Source: Eledone cirrhosa (lineage: Eukaryota). From it: DNA of 64,000 nt. The notes beneath the pieces were generated by a model. It was not told where the DNA came from. It did not search any database and saw nothing but the letters and a program-made list of their open reading frames with translations. This document shows positions 3,852 to 59,015 of the stretch, piece by piece. The stretch lies in NCBI GenBank assembly GCA_964016885.1, contig OZ024752.1, forward strand, positions 45,756,001 to 45,820,000, written 5' to 3'. A program made the position numbers and the translations under genes. Positions within the stretch are counted from its first letter, which is position 1; each line of letters begins with the position of its first letter.

Positions 3852-4038
3852 GTAGTAATAATAATAAATTTGAAGACTAAAATCCAAAGAGGGCTCGATA
3901 AGGATAAATATATATCAAATATACAAGAACGGTAGAGCAAATATTTATTAAAATAACAGATTAAAGTTTAAGCAAAGAATCGCTGCTTTCAACCCTTGAC
4001 GGGATCTTCTGAAGATCCCGTTAAGAGCGAAAGCAGCG
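3852..4038. mobile_element. Penelope-like terminal repeat remnant (family D), rearranged, ending in a palindrome at 3981-4038
   Basis: Shares both segments with 58858-59015, but in the opposite relative orientation. Inverted repeat CGCTGCTTTC...GGGATCTTC/T/GAAGATCCC...GAAAGCAGCG, next to (TA)n. Confidence 0.6.
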
Positions 4039-4334
4039 GGGTCCGGGTAAATTTTCATTCACAGATATTTTTTATTTGTTTGACCCGAATTACTTGATCG
4101 TCTTTTTGGCTATGCGAATGACTGTTTAACCATCGTCTCAGTGTGTTTGGCCTTTAACGTATGTTATAGCTCTGGTTCATCTGAATCATTGAGCACTTGC
4201 CACACATCTCGGAGGTTGTTTTTCGTTATTTCGTGGGCCGAAATGCGATTCTCGATAATGTATATATATATATATATATATATATATATATATATATATA
4301 TATATATATATATATATAAGTTTTAATATAGATG

Positions 4335-4385
4335 AGATTCTACAGGACTAGAACTGTTTCATTCTTTAGAAATCACCAGGAATCT
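4335..4385 (-). ncRNA. Type I hammerhead ribozyme-like motif (family A) with core mutation CUGGUGA
   Basis: Minus strand reads AGATTC CTGGTGA TTTCTAAAGAAT GAAA CAG TTCTAGTC CTG TA GAATCT. Stem I is 6 bp, stem III is ACAG/CTGT, and the site is GUA. Core A6 is changed to G. Confidence 0.7.
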
Positions 4386-4820
4386 GGGTATCAAAAAATA
4401 AATATGGTATTTATAGGTCTCTACAAGTGGTAGGAGAGGGTGGGGAGTGGGATGGGTGTAGGTCATTGGTTGATAGAAAAGGGAATTCATTAAAAGCTAA
4501 TTCTACAAAGCTATAGTTTATTTTTCCTCCGATTCAACCCGGAATAACGTACGTATATATATATATATATATATATATATATATATATATATATATATAT
4601 ATATATATATATATATATATATATATTTAATATTAAAAAAATAATGAATAAAACAATGAAACAGTTCCTTATATTAAACAAAAAAAGTTCATTATTTAAC
4701 GATCGTTTCTAGGATATATATGTGTTAGAATTGGCATGCATATTCAACAGATCTATGTACAAAATTATACCGTAAACTGTTGGTAGATTTATCTACATAT
4801 ATATATATATATATATATAT

Positions 4821-5020
4821 TTAATGTAGAAAGGCTTCTACAGGACTAGAACTGTTTCATTCCGCAGAAATCATCAGGGCTTCCTGATGATTTCTCCGGA
4901 ATGAAACAGTTCAAGTCCTGTAGAAGCCTTTTTCTACTTTTCTACATTAAATATGTATACTCTGCTTTGTATTGAGCACCTTACTTACTGTGGTTACCCC
5001 CGATTGAACCCGGGATACAC
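4821..5020. mobile_element. Palindromic Penelope-like terminal repeat (family A) next to (TA)n
   Basis: Inverted arms at about 4831-4877 and 4883-4930. The downstream ATACTCTGC...GTATTGAGCACCTTACTTACTGTGGTTA matches 17909-17948 in reverse complement. Confidence 0.7.
4878..4928 (+). ncRNA. Type I hammerhead ribozyme (family A), intact core
   Basis: GGCTTC CTGATGA TTTCTCCGGAAT GAAA CAG TTCAAGTC CTG TA GAAGCC. Stem I is GGCTTC/GAAGCC, stem II TTC/GAA, stem III ACAG/CTGT. Predicted cleavage after GUA (4922). Confidence 0.8.
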
Positions 5021-6780
5021 TTATATATATATATACATACATACATGATACTGTATGTATAGACGTATGTATGTATTTATGTAAATGCAAATTGTTTATG
5101 GTTGTATAGAAAAGCTTACATATGTAGTGTGAGTTATAATAGTGTTTAGGATGTGTTGTTTGTAAGACAACAATTGGAAGAGGAGTGTCTGAGAAATGAA
5201 AAGCTTGCAAAGTTGTTACAAGAACGAAACCCCCTGAAATTCCATTGTACTCAACATTTATATATGAATATTTCTTTCTTTATATACACACACACACACA
5301 TATGTATATATACATATATATATATATATATATATATATATATATATATATATATATATATATATATATATATACATATATATATACATATATATATACA
5401 TACACAGACATATATATACATATATATATATACATACACACTCACATATATATATATATATAAATACACACATATTATGATATATATGTATATATACATA
5501 CACACATATATATATACATATATGTATATATACATACACACATATATACTTATATATATATACATAAACATTGGGTAAGAAAGTGCTATTATACCCTATA
5601 TATATATATATGTATATATATATATGTGTCTGTATATATATATATATATATATATATATATATATATATATATATATATACATATATATATATATATATA
5701 TATATATATATATATATATATATATATATATATATATATATATATATATATATATATATATATATATATATATATATATATATATAACAGGATGTTGTAG
5801 TTAGGCTGACGCATTGTTGTATAGGAAACATATATTTAAATAATTTTGAAAACCATACAATGCATTAGAAAATTAAAGATGTCAAGATAATAATTCAGAA
5901 ATGCTTCCACCGCCCTTGTAAAGGTATTCCAGTCTTTTATACACACAGTGTATTTAGTACTATGATACATCATCTCGTTTTCTTACCTTTATCTAAGAGA
6001 GAATGATGTGATTTAAACCACAGTTCGGCTATTTTATGTAGCAAGTGGAGCTAGGATGTAAAAGTGCCGCTGTTGACTGGCAATATTTATTTAACTGTGG
6101 AATGAACGTTCAGTAGTAATGAAAAGAAAGATCGCTTGTGCTGTACCAGCGGGGGAAAATAAATAATAAATAATGAAAAAATGATTTACTTCTTTTATGT
6201 TCACAGCTATATCTTATTAATTCAGGTGTAAACATACACAGAGAGAAGTAGATACGTTAACACACACACACACACACACACACACTCATTCGCACTCAGA
6301 CCTACCTGAACATATATATATATTCACACACTCACACATACACACATACTCACACGCAGACTTACCTGAGCATATATATATATATTTATATATACTTATA
6401 TTTATATATATATATTTATATTTATATATTTATATTTATATATATGTATATATATATTCACACTCTCACACATACACACAGACAGACAAATAAATAAGTA
6501 GATAGATAAATAGATAGATAGGTAGATAGGTAGACAGTGAGATAGATAGATAGATAGATAGATAGATAGATAGATAGATAGATAGATAGATAGATAGATA
6601 GATAGATAAGTAGGTAGTTAGGTAGGTTGGTAGATAGACAGATAAATAGATAGAAAACCGAACAGCTTGACAAATAGGCCTGCTGTGAATATAAAAAAGA
6701 TATTGTGTATATAATACATATTATACGTGTATATAATACATATTATACGTGAGTATGTGTGTATATATATATATATATAT

Positions 6781-7035
6781 ACACACGCATACTCACGTAT
6801 ACACACACATATACACACGCATACACACATACTCACGTTTACACACATATGCACACATATACACACATACTCACGTATACCCACACATATACACACACAT
6901 ACTCACGTATACACACACATGCACACATATACACACACATACTCACGTATACCCACACATATACACACACATACTCACGTATACACACACATGCACACAT
7001 ATACACACACATACTCACGTATACACACACACGTA
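6781..7035. repeat. Composite minisatellite with ATACTCACGTATACACACAC units
   Basis: Repeated units are directly visible; this is the reverse complement of the array at 7800-8560. Confidence 0.85.
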
Positions 7036-56313: not shown

Positions 56314-56629
56314 ATAGTTAACTATAATAATTATGATTCTAAAGGTAAGAAAAAAAGGGGTTAAAACCCTATCAAGTTCCACCCTGCTTTCTCCTCCTTC
56401 TTGCTCTGGGGTCAACTACAACTCTAAAACAACAACAACAACAACTCTAACAACAACAACACCAACAACAACTCATCACATTAAATATATTCTTTCCTCA
56501 AATGCTACAAAATGTCTGTCACAACAATCTGTCCATTAGGAAAGATACTATAAACATTTGAATTGACTGGTTTCAGGATGTTGAGAGTTAAACTGTCGAA
56601 CGAAACTGTTTACAGTTGTACATGTCTTA

Positions 56630-57140
56630 GTCATCACCATCACCATCATCATCATCATCATCATCACCATCACCATCACCAACATCATCGTCATCACCAT
56701 CATCACTACCATCATCATCAATCTCATCATCATCATCATCATCATCATCATCATCATCGTCGTCATCATGAACATCGCCATCGTCATCGTCATTACCATT
56801 ATCACCATCATCATCATCATCATCATCAACCCCATCATCGTCATCGTCATCACCACCACCACCACCACCACCACCATACTCTTCTATGACGTCATACCTC
56901 CAGTACCGGATATAATTTTCAATATAAATATTAATTACTAAGAACATTGTGATGATTTGGAAACAACAACAACAACAACAACAGCAGCAGCAGCAGCAGC
57001 AACAGCAGCAACAACACCAGCAACAACAACAACAACAACAACAACAACAACAACAACAACAACAACAACAACAACAACAACAACAACAACAACAACAACA
57101 ACAACAACAACAACAACAACAACAACAACAATAACAACGA
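56630..57140. repeat. (CAT/CAC)n followed by (CAA/CAG)n trinucleotide repeats
   Basis: Directly visible. Confidence 0.95.
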
Positions 57141-57233
57141 CATCAAAAGCGTATAAAAACAATTTAAAAAATGTATATAAAAAAAACAAGAGAAAGCAAA
57201 TATCCTGGTTATCTTTGGTGGAGAGAAACAACA

Positions 57234-58203
57234 ACATGGAGACATGGAGGGATGGAGACATGGAGGGATGGAAACATGGAGAGATGGAAACATGGAGGGA
57301 TGGAAACATGGAGAGATGGAAACATGGAGGGATGGAAACATGGAGAGATGGAAACATGGAGGGATGGAGACATGGAGGAATGAAGACATGGAGAGATGGA
57401 AACATGGAGTGATGGAAACATGGAGGGCTGGAGACATGGAGGAATGGAGACATGGAGGAATGGAGACATGGAGAGATGGAAACATGGAGAGATGGAAACA
57501 TGGAGGGATGGAAACATGGAGGGATGGAAACATGGAGGGATGGAAACATGGAGGGATGGAGACATGGAGGAATGGAGACATCGAAACATGGAGGAATGGA
57601 GACATGGAGGGATGGAAACATGGAGAGATGGAGACATGGAGAGATGGAGACATGGAGAGATGGAAACATGGAGGAATGGAGACATGGAGAGATGGAAACA
57701 TGGAGGGATGGAGACATGGAGAGATGAAACATGGAGGGATGGAGACATGGAGGGATGGAGACATGGAGAGATGGAGAGATGGAGACATGGAGAGATGGAA
57801 ACATGGAGGGATGGAGACATGGAGAGATGGAGACATGGAGAGATGGAAACATGGAGGGATGGAAACATGGAGGGATGGAGACATGGAGGGATGGAAACAT
57901 GGAGGAATGGAAACATGGAGGGATGGAGACATGGAGAGATGGAAACATGGAGGGATGGAGACATGGAGAGATGGAGACATGGAGAAATGGAAACATGGAG
58001 GGATGGAGACATGGAGAGATGGAGACATGGAGAGATGGAAACATGGAGGGATGGAAACATGGAGGGATGGAGACATGGAGGGATGGAAACATGGAGGGAT
58101 GGAGACATGGAGAGATGGAAACATGGAGAGATGGAAACAGGGAGGGATGGAGACATGGAGACATGGAGGGATGGAGACATGGAGAGATGGAAACATGGAG
58201 GAG
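57234..58203. repeat. 16-bp purine-rich minisatellite (ATGGARACATGGAGRG)n, about 60 copies
   Basis: Dimer of ATGGA-based 8-mers, with strong strand asymmetry. Confidence 0.95.
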
Positions 58204-58857
58204 GAATTGAGAAATATTGAATAAACACCAACACAGAAACTACTACTGCTATATATATAATATATATATATATTATATATATATACATATATATATATAT
58301 ATATATATATATATATATATATATATATATATATATATATATATATATATATGAAAACAAGGAGAAAGAGTCGATTATTAGGAAGAAAAATATATTTTTT
58401 TACTTTTTTGTTTCTCTCTCTCTCTTTTCTGGGTTAGAAAATGATTAAAACGAAATGTTTTACTTTGTGTGAAGTGTTAAGGTATTAGTTGATTTATTTA
58501 TTATTTAACAATGGCATTTATTTATCTATTTATATATTTAATAATTGCCTATTACCGGTTTCAGCATTTTTATGCATTATCAAATGATAGTGAAATGTAT
58601 TGGTGTGGTGTGGCACATGTTAAAGAGAAGGTGCAGAAAGAATAATGTTATTTACAAACAAGGTTTATGAAGTGAAAAGAAAAAAGAAAAAAACCGCGCA
58701 TAATGTAGAGCATAAAAAGTCAATGTGGAAGAAAAAATAATGTTATTTACAGGCTTAGTTCTTGAAGTTAAGCAGATGAAAATGTGTTAATATAGCAAGA
58801 GTGGTTAGTTGATCCATGATTCCATGATGGAGGCAAATGGTATATGTATATATATAT

Positions 58858-59015
58858 ATTAAAATAACAGATTAAAATTTGAGCAAAGAATCGCTGCTTT
58901 CACCCTTAACGGGATCTTCTGAAATATTTGCCCTAGGGTTCTTATATATTTGATATATATTTATCCTTATCGAGCCCTCTTTGGATTTTAGTCTTCACGT
59001 TTATTATTATTACTA
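58858..59015 (-). mobile_element. Penelope-like terminal repeat (family D) with hammerhead-like fold at 58874-58928
   Basis: Minus strand reads AATATTT CAGAAGA TCCCGTTAAGGGT GAAA GCA GCGATTCTT TGC TC AAATTTT. Flanked by (TA)n and homologous to 3852-4038. Confidence 0.6.

Follow-up and report, generated by a model that had tools for sequence, protein, structure and literature searches.

Short Hammerhead-Bearing Repeats in a 64-kb Stretch of the Eledone cirrhosa Genome Are Very Probably 3′ Ends of Protein-Coding Penelope-Like Elements

Introduction

Hydra-clade Penelope-like elements (PLEs) that carry hammerhead ribozymes and prefer (TA)n as insertion site have already been published (PMC8557442). 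In the available parts of that paper, the supplement records a preference for (TA)n in almost every Hydra family, one of these being from Octopus bimaculoides, and File S2 gives most Hydra hammerheads a core-T-stem-T-GAA architecture. The stated marks of the Hydra clade are CxCx5C, CxxC..E..N..CxH, RW(K/R) and DKT, and CX2-5CxxC is a mark of Neptune; the function of the hammerhead in PLEs is described there as unclear and their tandem and inverted structures as unexplained. Solo truncated copies and pairs on opposite strands were reported in PMC4209133. Recent Penelope activity has been described for Octopus vulgaris, in a paper whose available text does not mention ribozymes (PMC13282606). 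Here we analysed 64,000 nucleotides of the octopod Eledone cirrhosa (assembly GCA_964016885.1, contig OZ024752.1, positions 45,756,001 to 45,820,000; the window), for which an earlier reading, referred to as the original prediction, had proposed a dense set of about six families (A to F) of non-coding, hammerhead-bearing retroelements that use (TA)n as a landing site.

Results

Protein-Coding Parents

Families A to E very probably represent the short 3′ ends of protein-coding PLEs, for which full-length copies likely supplied the reverse transcriptase (RT) and endonuclease that placed them in (TA)n. In the window itself, tblastn detected no PLE open reading frame (ORF), confirming the original prediction that Penelope RT and GIY-YIG ORFs are absent here. 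The genome-wide search for linkage to such ORFs, which it had suggested as a check, was successful for five of the six families, and its lead to PLEs held in that A to E were traced to PLE parents. The family C hammerhead is located at most 900 nt downstream of an endonuclease peptide match in 18 of 30 loci (which include the one that supplied the query). The 3′ end is sharp and common to the C copies, the 5′ end is variable, and two out of 30 copies extend to the endonuclease C-terminus approximately 500 nt upstream. Locus L211 contains a whole C element, with an RT/GIY-YIG frame (4453-2579) between hammerheads at 5312 and 1857, which are 3,455 nt apart. An upstream endonuclease was likewise found for B in 14 of 30 loci (with an RT in L363), for D in 6 of 30 (on the same strand, ending 0.93-1.0 kb upstream), for A in 4 of 30 (reached by stepping upstream; L371 carries a 604-aa open frame) and for E in three of eight extended loci, 1.86-1.89 kb away.

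The parents of A, B, D and E all carry the CxCx5C linker, CxxC..E..N..CxH and, at the C-terminus, a GIY-YIG domain. RWR and DKT motifs are present in the B parent, RWK-type and DKT motifs also in L362, and the A, D and E frames that were read stop outside that region. The C elements L211 and L212 show an RT, a CX2-5CxxC linker, a GIY-YIG domain with internal cysteines and terminal repeats with a minimal hammerhead, and are Neptune by motif only. To judge from these protein motifs, A, B, D and E are Hydra-type and C is a Neptune-type PLE end. The parent proteins of the new Hydra-type families are 38-56% identical to one another. An initial labelling of the parents as Nematis-like was rejected, as the motifs fit Hydra. 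Four points speak against the parentage as drawn here: the clades were assigned by motifs and not by a tree with named references, Pfam gave GIY-YIG and RVT_1 matches on the parent frames at sub-threshold scores only, the E parent loci showed an endonuclease and no RT, and for F two further copies were seen and no parent was traced.

A full-length Hydra-type element of another family was observed at L362:1960-5811, where two identical hammerheads spaced by 3,851 nt enclose a 750-aa open frame; it lends itself well to study. RT/GIY-YIG frames of other, differing types were noticed at L372:7112-9499(-), L220:5132-6607 and L218:174-1376.

Anatomy of the Short Copies

Most copies are non-coding and 130-250 nt long, and in families A to E the hammerhead fold is placed 115-210 nt from the 3′ end. 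A (TA)3 within 12 nt of the 3′ end was found in 22 of 28 copies of A, 86 of 98 of B, 52 of 64 of D and 5 of 17 of C, compared to a background of 8.3%, and the proposed adjacency to and targeting of (TA)n was thereby borne out. For E the count was 1/7 with a reference that stopped before the element end. Incidental copies of A, B and D stopped at either of two discrete 3′ ends, separated by 65-90 nt according to whether a tail was present. An inverted copy adjoins 62 of 98 copies of B, 12 of 28 of A, 27 of 64 of D and none of 17 of C. Insertion in (TA)n, an inverted truncated copy and a tail at one end are all marks of Hydra-type elements.

We suggest that reverse transcription would start at the tail and halt at a family-specific point, and that the end of the complementary DNA would then fold back and prime the second arm, creating a new hairpin centre with each insertion. 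The ribozyme would serve the parent element by processing tandem transcripts and would not define the ends of the short copies. Hairpin centres were distinct in 44 of 44 cases for B and 7 of 7 for D, and copy-specific variants were mirrored on both arms 18 times versus 17 on one arm in B and 24 versus 8 in A. Distinct centres together with mirrored variants fit a new fold-back at most insertions. A single fixed centre for A was considered and rejected as query bias, since six out of six centres among incidental copies differ. Less favourable to a fold-back at each insertion, only 14 distinct centres were seen in 30 A hairpins with a query containing the recurring centre, similar centres recur in D, and D variants were mirrored once and confined to one arm seven times. 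Some hairpins may therefore have been copied as units.

Origin of the 5′ Ends

The 5′ ends of the short copies are clustered. Forty of 98 B copies start at +40 to +46, inside loop II, and three upstream of +24; 21 of 52 E copies start at −36 to −28; A has a sharp edge at −6 to 0. Tentatively, we take the clustered position to be where a short RNA naturally begins, its start lying within the terminal repeat. An internal promoter in the terminal repeat has been described for D. virilis Penelope (PMC2377424), and the 5′-end pattern taken together with this promoter leads us to favour short RNAs with an internal start over stalling or splicing and over amplification as units. The D edge is weaker with widely spread ends, the 5′ ends were defined by BLAST and are blurred by subfamily divergence, and the E edge showed no YYANWYY match, all of which count against this preference. 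The A, B and D edges coincide with a YYANWYY/YAG site, a coincidence noticed post hoc in sequence that holds 4-8 such sites per 220 nt.

It is also possible, if somewhat doubtful, that RT stalled at the folded ribozyme on full-length RNA, or that a splice acceptor or lariat branch set the edge. In A and D the edge meets stem I at its 5′ strand, in B it is inside loop II, in all three at a YAG, and the D. virilis Penelope intron ends at helix I according to the available text of PMC4209133. However, the upstream edge is sharp in B and E, with decay only toward the 3′ end, and C has a hammerhead yet neither clustering nor fold-back. B hairpins are not spliced products, because they retain the AG and up to ~13 nt before it.

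Amplification of whole hairpins from a few master copies, in the manner of miniature inverted-repeat transposable elements, would agree with short inverted-repeat elements at TA sites and with the recurring centres in A and D. We consider it improbable in view of the 44 distinct centres among 44 B hairpins and of arms that are PLE 3′ ends, unequal by a PLE-type tail.

The original prediction itself, read as independent non-coding retrozymes that would replicate as ribozyme-processed circles, is very unlikely. It accords with the small size and non-coding nature of most copies, and in the available part of a preprint, PLE terminal repeats are given as the source of animal retrozymes (10.64898/2026.07.22.740005). 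True tandem hammerhead arrays of retrozyme-like structure were indeed observed elsewhere in the genome, one with a 468-nt unit (L264:457-9026, 19 hammerheads in 10 kb) and one with a 311-nt unit (L258:2902-3835(-) and 7565-7876). Against it, A to E are collinear with PLE ORFs, the window copies are solo or inverted and none belongs to a non-coding head-to-tail array whose units each hold a complete hammerhead, the 5′ half of the ribozyme is missing from short B copies, and no copy begins at the cleavage site (0/207 copies of A, B, C and D start within 2 nt of its predicted position). A set of non-coding retrozyme-like retroelements was thus not upheld, with coding parents for five of six families, no tandem array in the window and a density at the genome average. 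One part of the non-coding idea may survive, in that the short copies, with their sharply defined 5′ ends, may arise from short non-coding RNAs whose start lies within the terminal repeat.

Hammerhead Motifs in the Window

Tandem repeats make up 45% of the window. Every locus named in the original prediction was located in the sequence. Motifs were searched with a type I hammerhead descriptor comprising stems I-III, which tolerated a long stem III and, at the stem II foot, a U.U or one extra base; it had been loosened after the families were seen, and identical rules were applied to the shuffled controls. Cleavage is compatible with a U.U foot of helix II, as axolotl HHR_Amex2 cleaves (PMC7229834), and such a foot is also remarked on in PMC3088659. 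A strict descriptor matched only in families E and C. The relaxed one detected five complete motifs with a canonical core (C3 at 4884(+), 18025(+), 18011(-), 35933(-) and 41419(-)) and eight when one core mismatch was allowed, the additional ones being 4379(-) and 25396(+), each CTGGTGA, and 58921(-), CAGAAGA. Shuffling gave means of 0.087 canonical and 0.66 one-mismatch motifs (150 shuffles of the 35-kb unmasked part) or 0.05 and 0.59 (80 whole-window shuffles), and none of the 230 shuffles equalled the observed counts. This comparison, one of the proposed checks, clearly supported a hammerhead topology common to families of differing sequence. The five complete canonical type I copies (CUGANGA/UUGANAA core, GAAA, NUH, stems I-III) belong to A, C and E; B and D depart from the canonical core and F from an intact stem I.

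The remaining checks gave mixed results. Rfam returned no match in the window at gathering thresholds, so that only the relaxed descriptor recovered the motifs; in E-value mode, the best 150 of 683 matches consisted of microRNA models on simple or inverted repeats and one viral untranslated-region model. The expected covariation was found in modest form within families. In A, 90.9% of cells were paired with two pairs changed on both sides (10/500 shuffles), and F-like copies showed three such pairs (1/500 shuffles) with stem II misregistered in 4-5 rows; before pairs were counted, 9 of 25 distinct A-like rows (for the most part indels or junction arms) and 3 of 19 F-like rows were set aside. 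The minimum-energy fold was the hammerhead in none of eight motifs (z −0.04 to −1.65), an uninformative result which, like the modest covariation, weighs on the negative side. These same observations might suggest chance matches in AT-rich repeats, a reading of practically no likelihood that is refuted by the shuffle comparison and the ORF linkage, the more so as an identical topology stands at the equivalent place in unrelated PLE families and agrees with published PLE hammerheads. As far as sequence can tell, the hammerhead motifs are genuine and of a kind already published, in PLE families that are new.

The window is not unusually rich in them. In 40 evenly spaced 10-kb stretches (400 kb) of the 3.0-Gb genome, the descriptor with canonical and CAGANGA cores gave 57 matches versus 0-5 in eight shuffles. 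After removal of 25 matches in two tandem arrays and six AT-rich spurious ones, the remaining 26 fell in 12 of the 40 stretches, corresponding to 4.2 per 64 kb compared to six in the window. The window is therefore typical of the genome, and the description of the set as dense did not stand. Extrapolation yields about 195,000 dispersed complete motifs genome-wide (Poisson range 127,000-285,000, in which clustering is understated); 235 hammerheads were counted in the giant squid (PMC6962438). At least 16 motif classes, U3-A8 families included, occur in three or more of 372 genomic loci.

Non-Canonical Cores

In the abundant family D, all three stems are retained and the core reads CAGAAGA (U4A) in every one of 16 long copies, which are spread over subfamilies. 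Among incidental D anchors, 12 of 18 read CAGAAGA and none CTGA. The variant is not an assembly error, because loose contig ends of independent runs, two of which carry other organism codes, lead into the same parental flank. The ribozyme region of D is 97.8% conserved compared to 89.5% upstream; this higher conservation is not specific, because it is matched downstream and that region served to select most of the copies. In B, the parent core is CTGAGAA in 21 of 30 loci (27 readable), and one related copy reads TTGATAA. Separately, one A-like copy (L017:2961-3016) was observed to read CAGATGA, again U4A with intact stems.

A literature search, with most subscription papers outside its reach, surfaced no report of a natural U4A hammerhead; the main text of PMC3088659 mentions U4C and contains no “U4A”. 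We regard it as rather unlikely, although conceivable, that Hydra-clade elements spawn hairpin mini-elements resembling short interspersed elements (SINEs) from internally started short RNAs and that D transposed with its U4A core fixed across subfamilies. If true, the D core would either be an active natural variant that is new or prove from nature that the fold is required by PLEs and cleavage is not.

Loci in the Window

The individual loci are compiled in Table 1.

Table 1: Elements and partial copies located in the window, by position.
Element	Positions	Strand	Details
Tailed family D copy (Hydra-type PLE 3′ end)	3852..4038	-	CAGAAGA hammerhead fold, C3 4011; short inverted arm 4009-4038
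Family A copy	4319..4553	-	Hammerhead 4338-4379, private CTGGTGA
Family A, second subfamily, fold-back	4821..5021	+	Complete hammerhead C3 4884(+); mirror 4877(-); tail on right
Family B fold-back	17652..17853	-	Hammerhead 3′ halves on both arms; tail on left
Family A fold-back	17910..18084	-	Complete hammerheads 18011(-), 18025(+); partial tail on left
Family B fold-back	20133..20325	+	Tail on right
Further partial B copy, absent from the original prediction	23066..23122	-	
Family C (Neptune-type PLE 3′ end)	25329..25511	+	Minimal hammerhead C3 25396, CTGGTGA
Further partial B-type copy	25545..25583	-	
Family C	35818..35991	-	Intact minimal hammerhead 35902-35937
Family E fold-back	41231..41590	-	Complete hammerhead 41356-41427(-) and tail; mirror-arm core 41456(+)
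Family B fold-back	41624..41827	-	Tail on left
E-related degenerate copy	50705..50850	-	Core CCGACGA (50747); stems I and III retained
Family B fold-back	52423..52630	+	Tail on right
Family F repeat	58352..58846	-	TTGATAA (U3-A8) core 58583; stems II and III present, stem I broken
Family D	58858..59013	-	Tail-less arm with CAGAAGA hammerhead fold 58921(-); inverted tail-only arm 58922-59013(+)

The A copy at 4319..4553 continues into parental upstream sequence (4385-4525), followed by the final ~24 nt of the tail in inverted orientation. In the mirror arms at 4877(-) and 41456(+), the 5′ strand of stem I was lost at the fold-back centre. The B half-motifs that had been noted proved to be true hammerhead 3′ halves (GAAA, 6-bp stem III, GUC, stem I′). 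At the D locus near 3980 a hammerhead fold is present as proposed, whereas CTGAAGA at 4009(+) is a palindrome junction and the family core is CAGAAGA on the minus strand.

Several other features were noticed in the window. At 7140-7210, CTGATGA directly follows a 7-bp stem with no GAAA downstream, in a repeat also present in L256, and is possibly a permuted or truncated hammerhead. A high-copy repeat between TA runs (4627-4780) has, read on the minus strand, a half motif of the form GAAA-palindrome-UU. The sequence at 4038-4260 is a separate young repeat with copies 96-98% identical and a ~600-nt partial-tandem unit ending in (TA)n, in which inspection by eye revealed no hammerhead or ORF. Further inverted-repeat elements (17446-17602, 18931-19236, 33064-33374 and 52308-52359) are possibly fold-back ends of other PLE families. 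The most abundant interspersed repeat of the window, of ~190 nt, occurs at 27330-27527, 38464-38650, 39197-39385, 52764-52940, 56122-56323, 62035-62401 and other positions; it gave 64 BLAST matches in 400 kb and is, at a guess, probably a SINE.

Discussion

As annotation, these findings are ordinary, PLE-terminal hammerheads and Hydra elements in (TA)n having been published before. The residual interest concerns the U4A core of D and the junction pattern of the short copies. The junctions record the integration mechanism, and sister families with canonical and non-canonical cores, together with thousands of candidate short copies, provide a useful test bed.

Like the Hydra-clade PLEs, including Hydra-1_Obim, in the available parts of PMC8557442, the parents of A, B, D and E show a C-terminal GIY-YIG, a CxCx5C linker, CxxC/CxH and, as read in B, RW(K/R) and DKT, and the elements share (TA)n insertions, a hammerhead close to the 3′ end whose stem II foot often has T on both sides, as in A and D, and inverted 5′-truncated copies with the tail at one end. 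The Hydra-1_Obim hammerhead motif was not found among the 372 genomic loci. In contrast to the published elements, the families described here are new, have 3′ untranslated regions of 1-1.9 kb, very many ultra-short fold-back copies and the non-canonical cores of D (U4A) and B (CTGAGAA), and their tails measure 65-90 nt versus a stated 30-40.

Family C resembles the minimal hammerheads of Neptune PLEs as given in the available text of PMC4209133, with a 4-bp stem I, an extra base between 9 and 10.1, G10.1-C11.1, a palindromic minimal stem III, mainly solo truncated copies and, in the full-length copy, two terminal hammerheads ~3.5 kb apart. It is a new family and mechanistically nothing new. 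With the non-long-terminal-repeat retrozymes of PMC7229834, the window shares type I hammerheads in short non-coding repeats and a U.U foot of helix II (HHR_Amex2), and the abundance in the genome is of similar order (126,247 motifs in axolotl). Unlike those retrozymes, which form head-to-tail arrays of 170-400 nt in the available text, the elements of the window are very probably solo or inverted ends of coding PLEs.

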